Below are positions 45,858-56,401 of a stretch of 63,440 nt of DNA, piece by piece. The notes under the pieces were generated by a model that was given only the letters and a program-made list of their open reading frames with translations, searched no databases and was not told the origin of the DNA. The first letter of the stretch is position 1; every line of letters begins with the position of its first letter. The stretch is from assembly GCA_964634945.1 (NCBI GenBank), contig CAZWMG010000011.1:1-63440 (forward strand), in the 5' to 3' direction. Both the position numbers and the translations under genes were made by a program. This stretch comes from an uncultured Planctomycetia bacterium. GTDB lineage: Bacteria; Omnitrophota; Gorgyraeia; JABMRG01.

Positions 45858-48800
45858 TTAAGCGGCTGATTTTATAGCAGAGAGCCTCTTCTTATCGCTT
45901 CTTAGTAAATCAGCGACACCTGTCTCGCTAGCCTTATCTAAGGGCCATACCTTAATATCGCCATTGTCGAATATTAACTGGAACGATCCGGCACCTCTAA
46001 TTAACTCAATGTCCTTGCTTGTCAGTGTGGCATTTGCGCGATCACGTTCGTTAATTAAGCGCGATATTGTGTTACCTATAGAATAGTATTCTATCAAAGC
46101 TCTAACAATATTGTCAGTGAAATCCATGATCTCTAATGTTATCAATGCTTTTTCTTTAATAAGATCTACATCCTTGATATTGACATCAAGGCCTTCCAAT
46201 CTTGTGTCTATCATATCGAGCACTATTGACCTCAATAAAGCTGACCTCTCGTCCCTTGAGAGAACATCCAGAAGATAAGCAAGCACATCTCCATATCTCT
46301 CTGCCTGTTTTGTCTGAATGCGCCTCTTAGAACAATGGTATAGAAATGAGTTAAAACCTTCCTTGCTTGAGCGCACTCTCCTGAATGAATCAAGAAAAGA
46401 TAAGAGGCTCTTTTTTGTATCAACATCCAGACTAAGCTTCCACTCCGCTGTCGGGTATTTCTTGTACTTCCATACAAAACCTTCATTACCTGTGGATTGT
46501 GACATCTTTTCAATAGCGTTATTAGCTATGAAGCGCTTTATCAGGCCCGTAAGATTCTCACGTTTCTTAATAATATCTCTCCATATATGTATATGAGCGC
46601 GGGCCTGTGACCTTTCCATGTCGACACGATATGAATTTGCCAGAACATCAAAAATCAGCCCCCTTCTATCTCCTTCATTCTTATAGGTTGTTCCGATAGA
46701 TATGATTGATTTTAAAAGACTGGCCGCGCTTGGCCTTCTTTCCCCTAGTTTCTCGTTGCTTCTTTCATTAGAAAGAGGGGAATACAACACAAGATAGCCA
46801 TTTGTTATTATATACTTGCCGTTTTCTAAACCTGACTCAATATCATCATATGCAATATCCTGACTAAGTACATCTATGGATCCCCTTGTCTCTGTATCTA
46901 TAATATCAAACAACTCCGGCATGGCTCCACCGAATACACCTATAAGCGCTGCCGCGTTTGTTACGCCTTTCATCATACTTGTCGCGGATGCCTCAAGAAA
47001 TTCATCTGAGAGCATTATTGTTGCCGCTACACCCTTAAAAATATTAGGCGCGTCAGCGATATTATAATTCTCAATAAAGGCTATCCTATCCTCCAGTCCG
47101 AGCCTCTTGGCGATATGCTTTAACTCTTTTTCAAAAAGATATCTTACTCCAGAATCAAATATCCTGCCTCCTATTATAAGCATTGTACCGGATGATTTGA
47201 ATTCATCAAGAGCCTCTTTATCCGCTTCAAAATATCTTAACATCTCAAGATATTTATCCGGACCCTTATACACAACCTGTCTCCTTACATTTGCTATCAT
47301 AGGGGCGCTTAGGACAGATTCTATAAGTCTAGCGAACTTTCTGTGTAAGTTGGGCCATGATCTACTGTGCCCTGATAACCCCCTATATATAAAGGCTCGA
47401 TACTGATCTAAAATCTTGTCTATATCTTTTAATTCTAATCCTGAATCTTTAAGTATCTCATTTAACCAATTGCTTCCACCCATATCCTGTCTCTGGGTCT
47501 TATAAAGCATGTTAAGCAACTCTAATGAATATAAGACCTTTATCATTTCAAATCTTTTAAGAAATGACGTTTTATTTCTTTTTGATTTATCAAGAACTGA
47601 ATAAAACTCTCTATCATCTACTATTTTATCGAGGCCTAGCTTATCCTTATATTGGTTAATAAGCATCCTAACCTCTTCCCCCTGCCACTGGTCTAATAGC
47701 GCACCATTTGTATTTCGCATACCATCGTCTGAATGTTGCGCTATCTTATGCCGATAAGACCGAAATATCTTATCCTTTAGTACGCCTGTGTGCTCATATA
47801 GCCCCACACCTGATATGGCGTCCGCTGTCAATGAAGCATATTCTGCTATGTTTATTCTCCCGTCAGTTACAATGAGTTCTCTTATTGACTCATCAAACCC
47901 CATAAGACTAAAAGCGTATTCAGGCGGCTTGTGCATGCCGGGCTCCCAGACTGTGTGGTTTATATGATGCCTTATAGTATTTGGAAATTGTTTTTTAGGA
48001 AGAGCTACAACAACTTCATTCTCAACAAACAATATATTCCTTTTAACGATATCTTGTTTCTGTAATATTTTAAGCAGGCATTGTTGAGCTTCATTAAATA
48101 CAACCATCTGGAAGTCTCTAAAATCATTATCAGGATACACCTGGTCAAATATGTATTCCTTGGTACCACCATCATTGAGATAATAAGCATCCAGATAATA
48201 AATCGGTGCATTACCATATTTTGTAACTGTCTCATATACGTGCGTATGAATAGTTCGGCCAGCAATATCTTTTGCTCTCGCGCTATTAACGTGTTCCATA
48301 AATTCCTGCGAATCAAATGTAAGGTCGAATGATATGCCTGTATTATCTAAGACATTTTTTATCTTACCCCCGAGGCTCTTTCCATCCTCTGGAGCGGGCA
48401 TGCCAGGCTGCATCTGGCCCGTTTCCTTATCATAATGAACCACATCACCTTTAATATAACTGTTATATAGAGGGTTAATTGAAACAACGTCAACACCATT
48501 CTTCTTCCATGCGCAAGGCAGATCATGCATAAGAGCACCTAAACCTCCTGTCATGGTAACCTGCGCTATAAACCGGGCAAAATTATCATCCTCCATAATT
48601 AGCTTTTCAAGTAGCCCCCTATCAAGGCCCGCCTCAAACTGCAGGCTTACTACTGTATAATCATTAAGCTCCGGGGCTTGCTGATTTACATAACTATGAG
48701 CACTATTAGCTGACTCATCATATTCTTTCATGCGGGATAAGAGCTCTTGCCTTATCTCATTCTGAGGCATATCAGTAGGATCAGACTGACCGGATGAAGA

Positions 48801-48956
48801 AGCCTTATCAATGGTATCATTTGAAATTGCGACAGGCCTGAGAGCGCTATGATCTGCTTTTTGAGTATAAGCTGTCGCTGAAAAAGATATGCCTGTATGA
48901 GATAATGCGGTGATTAGGATAATTATAAGACTTCTTTTTATTATTGCCCTACACAT
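45858..48956 (-). CDS. divergent alpha-glucan phosphorylase (GT35)-like protein with N-terminal signal/anchor and about 300-aa C-terminal extension
   Basis: MTGGLGALMHDL aligns with the GGLG motif. HHINHTVWEPG, NTNGALLDQW and ENYNIADAPNIFKGVAATIMLSDEFLEASATSMMKG match the ENYD...EASGTSGMK block of archaeal-type glucan phosphorylases. The N-terminus is hydrophobic. Confidence 0.6.
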   Translation of the reverse strand: MCRAIIKRSLIIILITALSHTGISFSATAYTQKADHSALRPVAISNDTIDKASSSGQSDPTDMPQNEIRQELLSRMKEYDESANSAHSYVNQQAPELNDYTVVSLQFEAGLDRGLLEKLIMEDDNFARFIAQVTMTGGLGALMHDLPCAWKKNGVDVVSINPLYNSYIKGDVVHYDKETGQMQPGMPAPEDGKSLGGKIKNVLDNTGISFDLTFDSQEFMEHVNSARAKDIAGRTIHTHVYETVTKYGNAPIYYLDAYYLNDGGTKEYIFDQVYPDNDFRDFQMVVFNEAQQCLLKILQKQDIVKRNILFVENEVVVALPKKQFPNTIRHHINHTVWEPGMHKPPEYAFSLMGFDESIRELIVTDGRINIAEYASLTADAISGVGLYEHTGVLKDKIFRSYRHKIAQHSDDGMRNTNGALLDQWQGEEVRMLINQYKDKLGLDKIVDDREFYSVLDKSKRNKTSFLKRFEMIKVLYSLELLNMLYKTQRQDMGGSNWLNEILKDSGLELKDIDKILDQYRAFIYRGLSGHSRSWPNLHRKFARLIESVLSAPMIANVRRQVVYKGPDKYLEMLRYFEADKEALDEFKSSGTMLIIGGRIFDSGVRYLFEKELKHIAKRLGLEDRIAFIENYNIADAPNIFKGVAATIMLSDEFLEASATSMMKGVTNAAALIGVFGGAMPELFDIIDTETRGSIDVLSQDIAYDDIESGLENGKYIITNGYLVLYSPLSNERSNEKLGERRPSAASLLKSIISIGTTYKNEGDRRGLIFDVLANSYRVDMERSQARAHIHIWRDIIKKRENLTGLIKRFIANNAIEKMSQSTGNEGFVWKYKKYPTAEWKLSLDVDTKKSLLSFLDSFRRVRSSKEGFNSFLYHCSKRRIQTKQAERYGDVLAYLLDVLSRDERSALLRSIVLDMIDTRLEGLDVNIKDVDLIKEKALITLEIMDFTDNIVRALIEYYSIGNTISRLINERDRANATLTSKDIELIRGAGSFQLIFDNGDIKVWPLDKASETGVADLLRSDKKRLSAIKSAA

Positions 48957-51907: not shown

Positions 51908-53482
51908 ATGGGCCCCTATTACATAACCTCTCTGTTAACCTCCTTAACATCTCTTGGCTTAGGTTTCTTTGTATTCTTTAAGAACCCAAAGAGCCGGCTC
52001 CATTGCTCTCTCTTCCGCCTTAATGGAGCTGTTGCCCTGTGGAGCTTCTCTCTATTCCTTCACTACATAGCAAAAGACCACTCTTTGGCTATGATAACAC
52101 TTTATATGCTCCACAGCGTTGTAGTCTTTATACCAACCTGCTATCTAGGATTTGTAACAGACCTCTTAAATGTAGATAAGAAAAATATTATAAAAACAGC
52201 TTATGCTATCAGCATAATATTTCTATGCCTAAGCTATACCCCTTATTTTATAACAGGCATAAGACCTAAACTCTTCTTTAGTTTCTACGCGACTGCGGGA
52301 CCATTATACGCGCTCTGGATAACAGCTTATCTTGTGATTGCGGGTTATGGCATCTATCTGCTCATTAGCAATTATAGCGGCTCCTCACCTATAAAAAAGA
52401 TTCAGATAAGATATGTCCTCTTCGCATCCTTAATCGGATTTGCAGGAGGCATGACAATTTACCCTCTCTTTTATGATATCCTAGTGCCACCATGGGGCGA
52501 ACATATCATATTTCTTTATCCTATAATATTCTCTGTAGCGGTCCTAAAACATGATGCCCTTGAACTTAATATAGTAATAAGAAAGACTCTCATCTATTCA
52601 GTTTCAATTGTCCTGATAATGCTTGCGTATCTAGTAACAGTGCTATTATCGGAAAGGCTCTTGCGTAACGCGCTGGGATATCAATCAATATGGGTTACAG
52701 TGGCAGCTGCGGCAGGAATAGCGCTTCTTTTTAACCCGTTAAAAAACAGGGTCGAAACTATTGTCGAAAGATTTTACACACGTAATACGTATCAAAAACT
52801 TCAGAAGGAACTAATTGAATCGGATAAGTCCAAGGCGCTCGCGCAGCTCGCGGCAGGCCTTGCGCATGAGATACGAAATCCCTTAACCGCTATAAAGACC
52901 TTTAGCGAATTTTTGCCTGAAAAATATAATGACAAGGCCTTTAGGGATAACTTCTCCCAAATAGTCAAGGTTGAGGCACAAAGGATAGACTCCCTGGTAA
53001 GCCAACTCCTTGAATTCGCGAAACCATCTACTTTAAATATTAAGCATTGCGATATCCATGAAGCCTTAGACTATACCTTAAGCCTGCTCTCAGGAGATAT
53101 TCTGAAATCTGAGATAAGAATTATAAAAAACTACGATAGGGCCTGCGATACCGTAGCCGCTGATCCGGAAAAACTCAAACACGTATTCTTTAATCTGATA
53201 AGAAACAGTATAGAGGCCATAAATAAGAATGGCAGGATTATCATCTCGACAAGATTATCAGGAAATTATTTTAACATAGAGATAAGCGACACTGGGTATG
53301 GCATAAAGAAAAAGGATTTGAACAAGGTATTCGAGCCTTTCTTCTCTTCTAAGGAGAGTGGTACAGGCCTTGGGCTCTGTGTGGTCCAGAGCATCGTTGC
53401 CGAACATGGCGGAAATATCTCCGCTAAAAGCGCTCCGGGGGAAGGCACGACTTTTACCGTATCCCTGCCATATAAACGATAA
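51908..53482 (+). CDS. sensor histidine kinase with multi-TM (7TM-type) N-terminal sensor
   Basis: About 7 TM helices, H-box LAHEIRNPLTAI, then N and G1/G2 boxes (NLIRNSIEA, DTGYGI, GTGLGL). Confidence 0.88.
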   Translation: MGPYYITSLLTSLTSLGLGFFVFFKNPKSRLHCSLFRLNGAVALWSFSLFLHYIAKDHSLAMITLYMLHSVVVFIPTCYLGFVTDLLNVDKKNIIKTAYAISIIFLCLSYTPYFITGIRPKLFFSFYATAGPLYALWITAYLVIAGYGIYLLISNYSGSSPIKKIQIRYVLFASLIGFAGGMTIYPLFYDILVPPWGEHIIFLYPIIFSVAVLKHDALELNIVIRKTLIYSVSIVLIMLAYLVTVLLSERLLRNALGYQSIWVTVAAAAGIALLFNPLKNRVETIVERFYTRNTYQKLQKELIESDKSKALAQLAAGLAHEIRNPLTAIKTFSEFLPEKYNDKAFRDNFSQIVKVEAQRIDSLVSQLLEFAKPSTLNIKHCDIHEALDYTLSLLSGDILKSEIRIIKNYDRACDTVAADPEKLKHVFFNLIRNSIEAINKNGRIIISTRLSGNYFNIEISDTGYGIKKKDLNKVFEPFFSSKESGTGLGLCVVQSIVAEHGGNISAKSAPGEGTTFTVSLPYKR

Positions 53483-53487
53483 AAACT

Positions 53488-54720
53488 TTATGCAGCAGCG
53501 GCTATCGCCTTAGCTTTTTTATGATGCTTAAGCAACGCACCCTCATGGAGATTGAACGCATTATGCCCCTTAATTAATAAATGTTTTACCATGAATTCTC
53601 CCCCTGCTGTGCCATCCCATCCTGCAGAAGGTGCCCCGAGATTACCCTGTGAGATATTAACACCTCCTATTTTAAGATTAGAACTGCCATCGGGCAGATT
53701 TCTGGCTCTCTTTTCCCGCGCCGCAACCTCTTCCAATCTTCTCGTATATCCGTCAAAAAAACCATAATCTAAGGCGTCTGTATTATGCATAAAATCTTCT
53801 ACTATATCCAAAATCTCATTTAGCAGGCCTTCGTTATATGGACCTTTGGCAGAGAGCATCACGCTATCTTCATCTTTTATTCTAAGAGTAATAAGTTTAA
53901 ATTCTTTAGATAGATCAGAATATCCCTGTGTAAGCAATCTCATTACACCTATATCGATTTTGAGCCCTTTAGCCTTAACAGCCTTTGCAAATTTACTTAG
54001 ATGAGTTGACGGACGTACGTGGATCCCAAGAGAGTTTTCTACTATAATCTCTCTCTGGACTGCGTTCATTCCTCCTTCAAGTGCATTGGCCTCTCCTGCT
54101 AAGGGCGGCTTGAAACTGCCTGGCAAAAGATAGGCGCCTTCTTTTTCAGGTTGGGGGCTATCATCAGATAGGCGTATAGCATTTTTCTGCGATGCTGCAA
54201 TCTTATCCAATTTGTTGACATACTCTTCCCTATCATCAAATTTCAATGCGTCTGTATCCTGCAAAAAATCCTCTATCAAATCCAGGATGCTATTTAACGT
54301 ATCTTTACTATAAGGGCCGTTTGCGGTCAGCTTCACTTTCTCCTTATCCAATATTCCAAGGCCGATAAAATCCGAAGCCCTTGACAGGTCGCTATCCTTT
54401 CCCGTACGTAAATTCATTATGTTTATATCTATTTTTAATCCATTTTCTTTTATGGATCTTGTAAAGAGCACAATATATAATAACGCATGTCTATGTGTTC
54501 CCAAAGAGCCATCCAAAACAGACTCCCGCTCAACAATATTATACTCTCCTACTAAGAGTCTCTTAAGATTGCCTGCTAAACCATTGTCTGTGCTTTTTAA
54601 TATAAGCCTTGCAGCTATTGGCCTGAGGGTATCTATCGGCACAGCATGAAGGGATCTATTATCTCCCGCGCAGGTAAGTGCATAAATAATGATTATTATA
54701 AGTAGTATTATTTTTTTCAT
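53488..54720 (-). CDS. exported protein with two tandem HPr-like domains
   Basis: N-terminal signal peptide. Internal duplication: SLGTHRHA...GLKIDINIMNL...TANGPYSKDTLNSILDLIEDFLQDTDAL matches SLGIHVRPS...GLKIDIGVMRL...SAKGPYNEGLLNEILDIVEDFMHNTDAL. The second copy matches the HPr GIHARPA His-15 loop and the SA.G.DE...L helix. Confidence 0.6.
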   Translation of the reverse strand: MKKIILLIIIIIYALTCAGDNRSLHAVPIDTLRPIAARLILKSTDNGLAGNLKRLLVGEYNIVERESVLDGSLGTHRHALLYIVLFTRSIKENGLKIDINIMNLRTGKDSDLSRASDFIGLGILDKEKVKLTANGPYSKDTLNSILDLIEDFLQDTDALKFDDREEYVNKLDKIAASQKNAIRLSDDSPQPEKEGAYLLPGSFKPPLAGEANALEGGMNAVQREIIVENSLGIHVRPSTHLSKFAKAVKAKGLKIDIGVMRLLTQGYSDLSKEFKLITLRIKDEDSVMLSAKGPYNEGLLNEILDIVEDFMHNTDALDYGFFDGYTRRLEEVAAREKRARNLPDGSSNLKIGGVNISQGNLGAPSAGWDGTAGGEFMVKHLLIKGHNAFNLHEGALLKHHKKAKAIAAAA

Positions 54721-54747
54721 AAAAAAACTCTTCTAGGCTTAAGGGGC

Positions 54748-54801
54748 AAAAAAATAGACCTCTGGCTATTTCCCGCCAAAGACGGGCAGGTGCCAGGGGT
54801 C
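54748..54801 (-). terminator. intrinsic terminator after the 2TM gene cluster
   Basis: On the minus strand, GACCCCTGGC...GCCAGAGGTC (with inner CCCG/CGGG) is followed by TATTTTTTTG. Confidence 0.7.
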
Positions 54802-54876
54802 CTCTTATAAAAAATATTATATCACAAGATTATAATCAAGTCAAGTTTAAGCAGCACATATGTCAAGACGATATGT

Positions 54877-54925
54877 TAAGACCGGTTCTCAAGCACGGGT
54901 ACCCGTGCTTGAGAACCGGTCTTGA
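54877..54925. repeat. REP-like palindrome, copy 4
   Basis: aagaccggttctcaagcacgggta|tacccgtgcttgagaaccggtctt. This is a perfect 46-bp palindrome immediately after the stop of the 2TM gene. Confidence 0.9.
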
Positions 54926-54927
54926 AG

Positions 54928-55197
54928 CTATTCCTTATCCATAAGCTCTTTTACCTTCTTCTCTTCCCATTCCCTGCCTAAAAACTTCCCCTTGATAGTA
55001 AAGACATGTACAGCTTCAAAAAGTATAGCTATGCCCCAAAATATACTAACCCAGTAAAACCACAGCGCGTCAGGGCTTGTAATGAGATTAATAACGATAA
55101 GTATAAGATTTACCACGATATATGATATCAGGTTTGAGTAAAACCCCTTGAGCTGTCTTACCCTTTGCTGTGCCCTTTTAAGCTTATCATCTTCCAT
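54928..55197 (-). CDS. 2TM-domain membrane protein
   Basis: 89 aa with the pattern QRVRQLKGFYSNL.SY..VN followed by two TM helices, typical of the 2TM family. Confidence 0.6.
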   Translation of the reverse strand: MEDDKLKRAQQRVRQLKGFYSNLISYIVVNLILIVINLITSPDALWFYWVSIFWGIAILFEAVHVFTIKGKFLGREWEEKKVKELMDKE

Positions 55198-55224
55198 AAT
55201 ATCTCCTTTTTATTTTTATCTCCA

Positions 55225-55527
55225 TCATAGAGACAATATCTGCTGGTAATATTGGATAAGATTTTGTAGAGAATTTATTAACAGGACTCCAAAGAGATAA
55301 CTCACAATAACAACGGCCACGGATATAATAATCTTATTTCTGTTACTAAACCGTGGATTAAGCCATAAAAGAATAAGAACAAGTGGGCCTACACATAAAA
55401 AACCGATAACCAGCCAGTATGAGCTGAAGCACCACTTCTCCTTTGGCTTTTTATTTAAAAATTCACCGCAATATCTACATTTGATAGCTTCGTCTTTTAT
55501 CTCTTCCACGCAATACGGGCAAAGCAA
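55225..55527 (-). CDS. zinc-ribbon membrane protein
   Basis: CPYC-x12-CRYCG ribbon followed by 2 TM helices. Confidence 0.55.
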   Translation of the reverse strand: MLCPYCVEEIKDEAIKCRYCGEFLNKKPKEKWCFSSYWLVIGFLCVGPLVLILLWLNPRFSNRNKIIISVAVVIVSYLFGVLLINSLQNLIQYYQQILSL

Positions 55528-55545
55528 TTAAAGCGCCTCCTTTTA

Positions 55546-55737
55546 TTAGAGTCTAATGACATAAATGACTATAAAGCTTAGCAATAAAATTAATATAAGA
55601 GCAGTCGCTACATGAGAATACCTGATATCGCTTAGGAAGCCTATTCTACGGTTTAAAAACTCCCCACAATATATACATCTTAAGGCATCATCGTCAAGAT
55701 TAGGTTTTTTGCAATGTGGGCAGACATATGTAGCCAT
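55546..55737 (-). CDS. zinc-ribbon membrane protein (small)
   Basis: CPHC-x11-CIYCG ribbon plus 1 TM helix. Start at M38 with GGAGAG upstream. The longer ORF would overlap the upstream gene. Confidence 0.5.
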   Translation of the reverse strand: MATYVCPHCKKPNLDDDALRCIYCGEFLNRRIGFLSDIRYSHVATALILILLLSFIVIYVIRL

Positions 55738-55738
55738 T

Positions 55739-56401
55739 TTACTCTCCCTGCTTTCTCGTACCACATCTACCGCAACTCTTATCGTTAACGGGGTTTTTAT
55801 AATTGCAATTATCGCATATCCATATCTTTTCGAACAATACATCTGCATTAGGTGTTTTCGCGCTATTGCAGTTATCGCATTCCGTCAGCAAGTTGCTATT
55901 TTCTATGCCGCATTTTCTGCAAATCCAATAATCCGGGGAAGAAGGCTTTCCAAATTTTTTAGCATACATATCCTTAAAAATAGGTTTTAAATAAATATAA
56001 AGTATAAAAAGGATAGTAATTGGGATTAATAAAATGAAAATAATACTCGAACTGACATAATAGAGATAAAGGCATAATGCGATCGCGATAATTCCTGCAC
56101 ATACCTTTGCAATAAGGTCTTCGATATGATCCGGCAGCAAACCTCCTCCGCCAATCTCAAATATAATTAACAGCAAAAGCGCGAAACCGGATAATGTTCC
56201 GAATAACATAAGCCATTTTTTTATAGGAAGCTGCCTCTCCTGCTGGGCGCTCTCTTCATAATCTGACCTATGCTGCTGATAAGATGCGCGTGAATCGAGG
56301 TAATTATCCTGCGAGAATGCAGTCACGGGGGTAACTATATTGCCAGGGGCTAATACTAAAAAAGCGAACAATACTGTAAAAATAGATATTATCTTCTTCA
56401 T
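55739..56401 (-). CDS. membrane protein with two C-terminal RanBP2-type zinc fingers
   Basis: Signal peptide, 3-4 TM helices, then WICRKCGIENSNLLTECDNC and WICDNCNYKNPVNDKSCGRC. Both fit W-x-C-x2-C-x3-N-x6-C-x2-C exactly. Confidence 0.55.
   Translation of the reverse strand: MKKIISIFTVLFAFLVLAPGNIVTPVTAFSQDNYLDSRASYQQHRSDYEESAQQERQLPIKKWLMLFGTLSGFALLLLIIFEIGGGGLLPDHIEDLIAKVCAGIIAIALCLYLYYVSSSIIFILLIPITILFILYIYLKPIFKDMYAKKFGKPSSPDYWICRKCGIENSNLLTECDNCNSAKTPNADVLFEKIWICDNCNYKNPVNDKSCGRCGTRKQGE

Follow-up and report, generated by a model that had tools for sequence, protein, structure and literature searches.

A leader-tagged protein with two HPr-like cassettes in an uncultured Omnitrophota-type bacterium, and recurrence of the cassette in giant proteins

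We establish that P0001, from an uncultured marine bacterium of the Omnitrophota type, contains an extended HPr-type fold twice and is the smallest member of a leader- and tail-tagged protein class of its genome, and that this divergent, extended HPr-like cassette is a recurrent building block of Omnitrophota giant proteins, a finding that is new here. HPr is a textbook cytoplasmic protein, the phosphate carrier of the sugar system, and we give an even chance to P0001 being a leader-tagged phosphocarrier cassette protein that works through phosphotransfer at His234. Two published questions about the giants, whether their cytoplasm-type domains are truly outside the cell and whether they are cut into pieces, are brought to bench size by P0001, which has 410 residues, one leader and one tail.

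The P0001 frame and its leader

The P0001 gene (Table 1) has an ATG start and lies in a window of 63,440 nucleotides, the whole stretch of DNA analysed. Contigs from four metagenome runs match positions 53400–54907, each without a single difference. Alternative starts are a GTG at codon 27, which lacks a purine-rich tract, and two TTG codons (69 and 73) within the first strand. A mis-called start is not behind the hydrophobic N-terminus described in the original prediction: 13 proteins of the genome bear this type of leader, as do, in other genera, orthologues of one of the 13. By eye the leader (M-K-K, then I4–T16, then C-A-G or T-C-A) fits a Sec-type signal peptide, for which we looked for a positive n-region, an h-region of 7–15 hydrophobic residues and small residues at −3 and −1, and P0001 would be exported by it.

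Table 1. Positions of P0001, its parts and its neighbours in the window
Feature	Position	Strand	Evidence
P0001 open reading frame, 410 residues, stop codon included	53488..54720	-	ORF call and identical contigs in four metagenome runs
Signal-peptide-like leader, residues 1–19 (MKK, 13 hydrophobic residues, TCAG)	54664..54720	-	Sequence reading
Post-leader motif I-D-T-L-R-P, residues 29–34	54619..54636	-	Shared with the class; conserved in orthologues of the 921-residue EI-like protein
GARLA-like A-A-R-L-I, residues 36–40, ahead of cassette 1	54601..54615	-	Likeness by eye
Repeat copy 1, residues 56–188, HPr-like, degraded His loop LGTHRHA at 54484–54504	54157..54555	-	Repeat alignment
A-I-R-L-S, residues 181–185, 14 residues past the conserved Tyr; the G023 module has G-A-R-L-A there	54166..54180	-	By eye
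Repeat copy 2, residues 214–346, HPr fold with two-helix extension, intact LGIHVRP at 54010–54030	53683..54081	-	Pfam (35 bits), AF2, Foldseek
Degenerate boundary stretch A-R-N-L-P, residues 339–343, after cassette 2	53692..53706	-	By eye
Tail, residues 347–410, Gly-rich then basic, end A-I-A-A-A-A (53491–53508)	53491..53682	-	Pfam: no match
Convergent 7TM histidine kinase (neighbour only, outside the feature)	51908..53482	+	Pfam; synteny
Terminator-like hairpin and T-run, between promoter-like site and start codon	54748..54783	-	Sequence; no Rfam family
Promoter-like TTGACT-17-TATAAT with TG, 11/12	54816..54844	-	Consensus match only
Perfect palindrome of 46 nt behind the upstream 2TM gene; dispersed-repeat copy	54878..54923	.	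Similar copies elsewhere in the genome

Proteins with a shared leader and tail

An Ala-Ala ending is found on 13 of the 453 long frames of the genome, against 2.5 expected (P = 2.6e-6), and all 13 have an N-terminal hydrophobic 12-mer, against 36% of the other 440. Behind the leader most of the Ala-Ala-tailed frames carry (A/T)-L-R-P (the wider L-R motif, (A/T)-L-R-(P/S/E), is in 11/13 by eye), and five of the 13 occurrences of [DE]xLRP in the genome stand directly behind such a leader. The C-terminus often reads (A/F)-I-x-(S/A)-A-A, in P0001 A-I-A-A-A-A. Class members in this genome are mostly separate genes of 400–2,300 residues, and P0001 shares the tags with about a dozen other enzymes that normally work inside the cell. 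They include an EI-like enzyme of 921 residues, with leader and Ala-Ala tail, whose orthologues (29–72% identity) have kept both; a PPDK-like protein of 1,062 residues has the class leader, but ends in Ser-Ser. Other members (radical SAM, PPDK_N, RelA/SpoT, methyltransferase, GT9) are enzymes that depend on cofactors, and the class taken together therefore seems to act in a place that contains nucleotides.

Two HPr-like cassettes

An internal duplication with a repeat of about 110 residues had been predicted. The duplication is real and its units are longer: residues 56–188 and 214–346 align without a gap over 133 residues, with 56/133 identical (42%, E = 9e-35), at a period of about 158 residues. 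The prediction of two HPr-like domains is upheld by the repeat alignment together with the match of the whole protein to PF00381 (PTS-HPr; E = 3.2e-11, 43.6 bits, cut-off 23). Copy 2 alone is above that cut-off (35.0 bits, E = 1.5e-8) and copy 1 alone below it (13.6 bits, E = 0.072); since this weak match is confined to the C-terminal half of the profile, copy 1 is taken as HPr from its likeness to copy 2. The profile match to solved HPr structures has E = 1e-16. The AF2 model of copy 2, built from alignment A3 (pLDDT 91.6, pTM 0.84), has the order beta-alpha-beta-beta-alpha-beta-alpha, and in a Foldseek search with it ranks 1–37 were all HPr, Crh or NPr, the TM score, normalised to the target, being 0.77–0.86 and the rmsd 2.0–2.9 Å against HPr-type structures. 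The single-sequence AF2 model of whole P0001 reached pLDDT 33.8.

The two His loops are as first described, LGIHVRP at residues 231–237 of copy 2 and a degenerate LGTHRHA at residues 73–79 of copy 1, and (T/S)A(N/K)GPY...LN.ILD..EDF is present in both copies of the repeat alignment. His234 (in G-I-H-V-R-P) is residue 30 of the model, directly ahead of helix A (31–46); in E. coli HPr numbering the active-site residues are His15 and, two residues later, Arg17. In the copy 1 loop, G-T-H-R-H-A, the His is retained and the Arg and Pro positions are lost.

With the HPr/NPr/Crh family (PF00381, TIGR01003) P0001 has in common the fold, as modelled for copy 2, and the G-x-H-x-R-P loop of copy 2, located at the helix A N-cap. 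It differs from that family in its tandem duplication, in two extra helices per fold (about 45 residues after each, conserved across the cassette family), in its TIGR01003 score (33.1 bits, below the cut-off of 47.9), and in having an export-type leader and an Ala-Ala tail; moreover, it is not encoded with ptsI, and the genome already has a canonical HPr next to EI. It also differs in lacking a Ser46-type site, no conserved Ser being present at that column of the cassette alignment, and the genome (97.6% complete) gave no match to HprK (PF07475); a Ser46-type site with HprK/P is a Firmicutes-type feature of HPr and not a universal one. We took a resemblance between the helix extension and sigma-70 region 4 (E = 0.18) to be chance.

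At the borders of the P0001 cassettes there is no strict G-A-R-L-A, only degenerate stretches (Table 1). Giants in other genomes have [AG]ARLA on either side of the same module, and a 14,048-residue frame of genome G023 has 27 GARLA by manual count. Within the present genome [AGS]ARL[AS] is absent from every frame of at least 2,000 residues, and its own 14,309-residue frame has neither GARLA nor R-S-E-x-R punctuation. We also considered the tail as a truncated third repeat; aligned in register with the beginning of copy 2, it agrees at 13/50 positions (E = 0.2), which is not significant, and the reading is weakened further because the Ala-Ala end is a signature of the class.

The cassette in giant proteins

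Of 56 cassette places, 26 lie in frames of at least 1,500 residues, in 24 of 401 genomes (manual table count), and the cassette is also present in large frames of nine genomes from other classes. The giant open frames that bear it within the same class and phylum span 2,000–44,145 residues. Its neighbours there are GNAT, HATPase_c, methyltransferase, HAD, HEAT and PEP-utilising domains, types that match descriptions in bioRxiv 10.1101/2023.11.21.568195, bioRxiv 10.64898/2026.06.07.730766 and PMC10066038. The main texts of West-Roberts 2023, bioRxiv 10.64898/2026.06.07.730766 and Seymour 2023 do not name HPr, nor do those of the two giant-gene preprints contain PTS-HPr or PF00381; their supplementary domain tables may list it. 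P0001 shares its cassette with these Omnitrophota giants ('Archaeovorins'), as well as the arrangement of cytoplasm-type domains behind signal peptides, and differs from them in having 410 residues and a single domain type. TM-like segments around the cassettes in giant fragments gave no usable topology.

In a 2,649-residue frame of genome G382, PEP-utilizers (1466–1514), PEP-utilizers_C (1611–1961) and PTS-HPr (2110–2195) follow one another, so that the HPr-like cassette stands directly behind an EI-like PEP-utilising unit. PEP-utilizers_C shares a frame with the cassette in 3/24 genomes, a weak co-occurrence because PEP-utilising domains are common in Omnitrophota giants anyway (West-Roberts et al. 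2023, bioRxiv 10.1101/2023.11.21.568195). The 921-residue EI-like protein matches residues of a G023 giant that also holds an HPr-like cassette. A relation of this genome's 2,610-residue PPDK-like protein to the G382 frame was rejected, the two having only domains in common.

Multiphosphoryl transfer (FPr/DTP-type) fusions likewise join an HPr-type domain to PTS-type units, and like them the G382 frame has a swivel domain, a PEP-binding domain and an HPr-like cassette in a row; the look-alikes of P0001 in the Atlas are clusters of this type (score 0.78–0.80, a lead only). In contrast to these fusions, the giants examined lack both EIIA and the N-terminal HPr-binding domain of EI and comprise thousands of residues with unrelated enzymes, and P0001 itself consists of HPr-like units only.

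Whole-length relatives of P0001 are few, with five homologues among 1.84 billion representatives. A homologous-protein search with whole P0001 returned only itself, and one with the cassette alignment found, among longer lengths, only P0005 and P0006; no related loci appeared in genome and metagenome contigs with P0001 or alignment A4 as query.

Phosphotransfer or binding

P0001 is laid out as a Sec-type signal-peptide-like leader, the (A/T)-L-R-P motif, two extended HPr cassettes and the Ala-Ala tail of the class, and we suggest that His234 of cassette 2 would take a phosphoryl group from a PEP-utilising enzyme and hand it on to an acceptor, in a compartment set by the shared leader and tail. 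Cassette 1, with Arg and Pro of its loop lost, would probably be a non-catalytic partner. Candidate donors are the leader-tagged 921-residue EI-like protein (C4:49472–52234) and the canonical EI (C10:2677–4425). In relatives the cassette is one of the beads that make up giant multi-enzyme proteins, some of which also contain a PEP-utilising unit of EI/PPDK-like type, and here the EI-like and PPDK-like units are separate genes with the same leader, the 921-residue one also Ala-Ala-tailed. An unusual phospho-relay outside the normal PTS had been raised earlier as an idea, and these two proteins lend it unexpected support.

As first described, no PTS enzyme I or II gene is in the window (no EI or EIIA-2 match on the contig). 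That the organism might lack a PTS is not supported, since contig C10 of the same genome encodes EI, EIIA-Ntr (EIIA-2) and a canonical 96-residue HPr, the HPr next to the EI.

Among 30 aligned cassettes (identity 14–41%) the His is kept in 28/30 and the Pro in 25/30, and this retention in such divergent cassettes argues for retained chemistry and not for fold alone; the Arg is kept in 15/30 and the full H-x-R-P in 12/30. It is somewhat unlikely, in our estimate, that P0001 is instead an exported HPr-fold protein without phosphotransfer, the cassettes being binding or spacer modules outside the cytoplasm that dock other leader-tagged proteins, hold an anionic ligand at the His/Arg site or resemble structural beads in the giants. 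A pure spacer would need neither the His nor the Pro that persist at about 20% identity, the G382 cassette lies directly behind an EI-like unit, and fellow class members are cofactor-dependent enzymes. The binding reading draws on the leader, which follows the n-h-c rules and is class-wide, on the equivalent of Arg17 being kept in just half of the cassettes, on the extra two-helix extension conserved in the family, and on H-x-H in place of H-x-R in copy 1, in a P0001 remnant of genome G002, in fragment P0003 and in P0006, which bears a signal peptide (the remnant and P0003 have G-I-H-x-H-P at the copy 1 loop position). Nor is a phosphoryl donor known outside the cytoplasm, which favours binding and counts against phosphotransfer by a Sec-exported P0001.

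Further points that we count against the phosphocarrier reading are that the EI N-terminal HPr-binding domain PF05524 occurs in canonical EI genes of five genomes only and not in giants, that Pfam finds none in the 921-residue protein, and that the giants have no EIIA-2 domain; so too are the dispensability of the gene (see below), the degraded loop of copy 1, the rarity of whole-protein homologues and the terminator-like hairpin ahead of the start codon.

A bolder variant, which we regard as very unlikely, is that the shared address label exports a complete PEP-driven set (PPDK-like, EI-like and double HPr-like) from the cytoplasm, either into an energised periplasm-like space or into a prey or host cell. 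In the latter case PEP would be available, and by mimicking HPr the carrier could tap the PTS signalling of the victim or rewire it; this would fit a predatory or parasitic way of life, as has been proposed for the phylum, and the giants of relatives would be the same toolkit sent as a single chain. The phosphocarrier reading has a simple, classic assay, PEP-dependent histidine phosphorylation, with candidate partners that carry the same leader in the genome, and the location and phosphorylation state of P0001 would inform on the whole leader- and tail-tagged class.

A dispensable gene

The P0001 gene is dispensable and loosely constrained: two of three congeners lack it, and the third has it in broken form. 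G001 and G003 have no match to either P0001 or the EI-like gene; G002 has the EI-like gene and, at the same site, only a frameshifted remnant of P0001, and G000 has both genes. The omega of copy 1 against the G002 remnant is 0.49, to which the pseudogene branch of G002 contributes in part, and that of the neighbouring kinase is 0.08 at the same dS. These losses and values, together with the degraded copy 1 loop, the hairpin and T-run in the 5' leader and a stretch (residues 347–404) that has no family match and aligns weakly in register with a cassette start, are what would be expected of a decaying relic, left over from a cassette array and dispensable, whose frame is still open in this strain although it no longer has a function. 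We judge this to be unlikely because the frame is open over 410 codons with class signatures intact at both ends, which a truncated fragment would not keep, and the fold of copy 2 is modelled with high confidence and its active-site loop is complete. Moreover, between copy 1 and copy 2 dN is 0.50 with dS saturated, giving an omega of about 0.18, and therefore selection acted after the duplication.

The histidine kinase neighbourhood

The stop codons of P0001 and the convergent histidine kinase gene are indeed 5 bp apart. This adjacency is all that speaks for a partnership in which the HPr-like domains receive phosphate from the kinase or from its relay, to which we attach a negligible likelihood. 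The genes converge and do not share a transcript, upstream of the kinase lie a response regulator of its own and an HTH-cupin gene, and no such neighbour defines the other cassette-bearing frames examined. By synteny the predicted link fails: G001, G002 and G003 all conserve the kinase, and none has an intact HPr-like gene next to it. In G001 the kinase is 90% identical and is followed after about 30 bp by the next gene (identity is 90–92% across G001 and G002), and in G003 it is 65% identical. The neighbourhood is coincidental.

The 5' region

A 33-nt portion of the 5' hairpin is found again at C2:91712–91744. Against Rfam the 5' region of P0001 gave chance hairpin matches only, with no c-di-GMP or other riboswitch. 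Farther upstream, the contigs of all four metagenome runs end at the 46-nt palindrome, which has look-alikes in about 20 further places on 10 contigs (counted by reading the listing). A tmRNA, for which Aragorn gave none, was matched by Rfam RF00023.

Fold and duplication of P0001

P0001, the leader-bearing protein with two HPr-like repeats, is by our reading a small stand-alone member of a leader- and tail-tagged class that is fused into giant proteins in relatives. The stretch encoding it is no assembly artefact: in 4 of 4 metagenome runs, from four studies, one contig spans 53400-54907 with 0 differences, although some of these runs may be the source of this assembly. The duplication is real, since an ungapped alignment of residues 56-188 with 214-346 gives 42% identity (E 9e-35); the original prediction was thus right about the duplication and wrong about its length of about 110 aa, the repeat being longer.

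The whole protein matches Pfam PTS-HPr (E 3.2e-11, 43.6 bits, cut-off 23) and scores 33.1 bits against a cut-off of 47.9 with the NCBIfam HPr model. When the repeats were scanned separately with the Pfam profile, the HPr assignment that had been proposed for both held for copy 2 (35.0 bits), and copy 1 scored below the cut-off (13.6 bits, E 0.072, over the profile's second half only). Solved HPr structures were matched at E 1e-16 by a profile of 31 cassettes (HPr fold plus two-helix extension; one canonical HPr is among the 31) and at E 0.08-0.7 by copy 2 alone, and a search with copy 1 alone gave no match to them. AlphaFold2 with alignment A3 modelled copy 2 (residues 205-350) with pLDDT 91.6 and pTM 0.84, in the order beta-alpha-beta-beta-alpha-beta-alpha followed by two additional helices, and Foldseek with this model returned HPr, Crh or NPr at every rank from 1 to 37 (TM 0.77-0.86 on target), bearing out the predicted HPr fold for this repeat; modelling the full-length protein from the single sequence gave no useful result. 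In the copy 2 model His234 lies immediately ahead of helix A, the position of the active histidine in HPr. Residues 300-333, in the extension behind the second cassette, gave a non-significant match (E 0.18-0.26) to sigma-70 region 4 of solved RpoD fragments.

Since the source genome, G000 (1.78 Mb, 31 contigs, 97.6% complete), has a canonical 96-aa HPr adjoining EI on contig C10, P0001 is an extra, divergent paralogue rather than the HPr of the organism. Contig C10 also carries an EIIA-Ntr-type gene and a transporter fused to an EIIA-2 domain; a search of this genome for HprK found none.

A shared leader and Ala-Ala tail

In P0001, I-D-T-L-R-P occupies residues 29-34 and the C terminus reads A-I-A-A-A-A, and a 921-aa EI-like protein of the same genome, with a PEP-utilizers domain and PEP-utilizers_C, has a signal-peptide-like start, then F-D-A-L-R-P, and ends in A-I-S-S-A-A; its orthologues in G002, a congener, and in G006 and G008 (29-72% identity) keep both leader motif and tail. 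Among G000 frames of at least 100 aa, [DE]xLRP directly follows an N-terminal hydrophobic stretch in 5 of its 13 occurrences. Ala-Ala endings were found in 13 of the 453 frames of at least 400 aa, against 2.5 expected (binomial P 2.6e-6), and in 6/29 of those of at least 1,000 aa. All 13 tailed frames carry an N-terminal hydrophobic 12-mer (36% of the other 440 do), soon followed, as judged by eye, by (A/T)-L-R-(P/S/E) in 11 of them. These frames, of 414-2,329 aa, have interiors unrelated to each other and include, with the EI-like protein, a radical-SAM protein (2,329 aa), a metallo-beta-lactamase plus cNMP-binding protein, an HD plus RelA/SpoT protein, a methyltransferase, a GT9 glycosyltransferase and a phosphorylase-like protein. 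A PPDK_N-like protein of 1,062 aa shares the leader of the class, yet ends in Ser-Ser instead of Ala-Ala.

Because P0001 has both class-type ends, we take the ATG at 54720 as its true start and the protein as a complete unit, not a fragment. The alternatives are poor (codon 27 is a GTG that lacks a purine tract, and the TTGs fall within the first strand), and the hydrophobic N terminus does not stem from a mis-called start. G000 also has a tmRNA, assigned by Rfam (147.5 bits) and not found by ARAGORN, whose tag, by reading of the DNA, ends in Leu-Ala-Ala, so that the native Ala-Ala tails look like the last residues of the degradation tag.

Relatives and giant frames

Whole-protein homologues of P0001 are very rare: phmmer against 1.84 billion representatives returned five (42-825 aa), which hold a single cassette apiece, all in different contexts. 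The cassette itself was surveyed with a profile from alignment A2, which includes the G023 cassette, so that G023's own score arises by construction. Within the class 50 of 401 genomes matched at E 1e-5 or better. By our count from the table, 26 of the 56 listed places fall within open frames of 1,500-44,145 aa (24 genomes), 7 in frames of 361-858 aa (5 genomes, G000 included) and 23 in frames below 150 aa; two of the last are the G002 remnant, and the others, mostly HPr-sized, we take to be canonical HPr genes. Across the phylum 52/401 genomes matched; 10 belong to other classes, and in nine of these the cassette lies within frames of 2,979-10,310 aa. With their small genomes and giant frames, these relatives fit the published account (Seymour et al. 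2023, PMC10066038).

Most cassettes share the C-terminal extension, which near-canonical ones (e.g. in G026 and G064) lack. In the giants, the roughly 500 residues on each side of the cassette contain GNAT, HATPase_c, PrmA-type methyltransferase, ARMT1, GDE_C, ECF sigma factor, HAD, GDPD and HEAT domains. PEP-utilizers_C and the cassette occur together in one open frame in 3 of 24 genomes (G023, G056 and G382). The G382 frame (2,649 aa, open at the contig start) has a swivel (PEP-utilizers mobile) domain, a PEP-binding domain (PEP-utilizers_C) and the HPr-like cassette in this order within 730 residues, and is an EI-like/HPr-like fusion that lacks the N-terminal domain of EI. In the five cassette-bearing genomes searched, the HPr-binding N-domain of EI was found in ordinary-sized frames only and in no giant. 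A search for EIIA-2 likewise found it in ordinary-sized frames and in no giant. The 14,048-aa frame of G023 starts with a signal peptide, ends in A-I-G-T-A-A and holds both an HPr-like cassette and an EI-like region, the latter matched by the 921-aa protein of G000. Exact G-A-R-L-A motifs occur 27 times in it, at intervals of about 120-1,100 residues; around the cassette, where such giants have G-A-R-L-A, P0001 has A-A-R-L-I, A-I-R-L-S and A-R-N-L-P, a likeness by eye only, and a motif search of G000's own large frames found no punctuation of this type.

Further proteins were seen in these genomes. A 496-aa frame of G026, with two tandem near-canonical HPr domains (142.6 bits) and Asp-Gly-Gly-containing linkers between, is a further multi-HPr protein in the class. 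In G000, a 2,610-aa protein has a complete, though divergent, set of PPDK domains with 1,270 residues behind it that lack a domain assignment, and a 14,309-aa frame has no delimiter motif and ends in A-T-Q-A.

Coordinates of the features discussed (C2, C4 and C14 are contigs of G000)
Feature	Location	Strand
P0001 ORF, 410 codons	window 53488-54720	minus
P0001 residues 300-333	window 53722-53823	
Promoter-like site and hairpin	window 54748-54844	
Partial recurrence of that element	C2:91712-91744	
46-nt palindrome	window 54878-54923	
Row of small membrane proteins	window 54928-56401	minus
Phosphorylase-like protein	window 45858-48956	minus
921-aa EI-like protein	C4:49472-52234	
2,610-aa PPDK-type protein (L050)	C2:83345-91174	
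14,309-aa frame	C2:106153-149079	
tmRNA (L052)	C14:569-952	
Tandem HPr frame (L036)	G026:C1:32190-32732	
EI-like/HPr-like fusion (L049)	G382:C72:3-7949	
14,048-aa frame (L078-L081)	G023:C1:50182-92325	

The giant-gene preprints mention neither 'HPr', 'phosphocarrier', 'PF00381' nor 'PTS-HPr' in their main texts, although supplementary tables may list the domain; 'phosphotransferase' is absent from the main text of the first (West-Roberts et al. 2023, bioRxiv 10.1101/2023.11.21.568195) and occurs once in the second, solely as 'a kinase / phosphotransferase cluster' (bioRxiv 10.64898/2026.06.07.730766). Seymour et al. (2023) nowhere use 'HPr', 'PTS' or 'phosphotransferase'. A full-text search found no paper joining Omnitrophota with 'phosphotransferase system' and 'HPr', and a search on HPr-like, signal peptide and periplasmic yielded two papers that look unrelated by title and start of abstract.

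Possible function

In a 30-cassette alignment 28 sequences have the histidine, 25 the Pro that follows it and 15 the Arg; 12 carry H-x-R-P in full. Because the H-x-R-P loop of copy 2 is intact, the histidine is conserved across very divergent cassettes and EI-like and HPr-like units adjoin in G382, we suggest that P0001 may act as a phosphocarrier with a PEP-utilising partner; among the functions weighed this is the likeliest, with prospects that we consider evenly balanced. Its leader predicts export and, to our knowledge, no phosphoryl donor is known outside the cytoplasm. This conflict between predicted export and the need for a donor is common to the whole class of cofactor-dependent enzymes, and the same question, of export versus cytoplasm-type enzymes, is raised for the giants in the two preprints (bioRxiv 10.1101/2023.11.21.568195; bioRxiv 10.64898/2026.06.07.730766). 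That P0001 might instead be a non-catalytic exported module would accord with the leader, and the conserved histidine speaks against it; we regard it as doubtful.

Gene neighbourhood and congeners

The gene ends 5 bp from a convergent 7TM histidine kinase gene, as had been observed, and the proposal that the two proteins are partners drew on this arrangement, which is not kept within the genus: G001 retains the kinase at 90% identity, has no P0001 gene, and places the 2TM gene found upstream of P0001 in G000 about 30 bp behind the kinase; synteny comparison shows the gene to be absent from G003 too, and G002 has only a remnant. We therefore hold partnership with the kinase to be very improbable.

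The G002 remnant is single-copy, split over three frames and 79% identical in DNA to copy 1. By Nei-Gojobori estimates, dS, dN and omega are 0.47, 0.23 and 0.49 for copy 1 against this remnant, and 0.45, 0.038 and 0.08 for the neighbouring kinase between G000 and G002; between copies 1 and 2 dS is saturated, dN is 0.50 and omega about 0.18. Since the remnant and the 42-aa database fragment P0003 both have G-I-H-x-H-P at the site of copy 1's G-T-H-R-H-A, the loop of copy 1 has degraded in this lineage. That P0001 as a whole is a decaying relic would suit this loop and the broken G002 gene; copy 2 keeps its loop, and we judge the relic reading improbable.

Upstream, several small membrane proteins are encoded in a row: one that has a 2TM domain and whose gene is absent from G002, two 100-aa proteins, and a 220-aa protein bearing zinc-ribbon-like Cys pairs. 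The perfect palindrome behind the 2TM gene belongs to a dispersed repeat: by our reading about 20 other places on 10 contigs carry similar copies, and the metagenome contigs of 4/4 runs break there. Ahead of the P0001 start codon stands a strong promoter-like site of the TTGACT-17-TGTATAAT type, and no more than about 35 nt beyond it comes a terminator-like hairpin ending in a T-run; the element may represent an attenuator or a small RNA, or may simply be an inserted repeat, and part of it recurs on contig C2.
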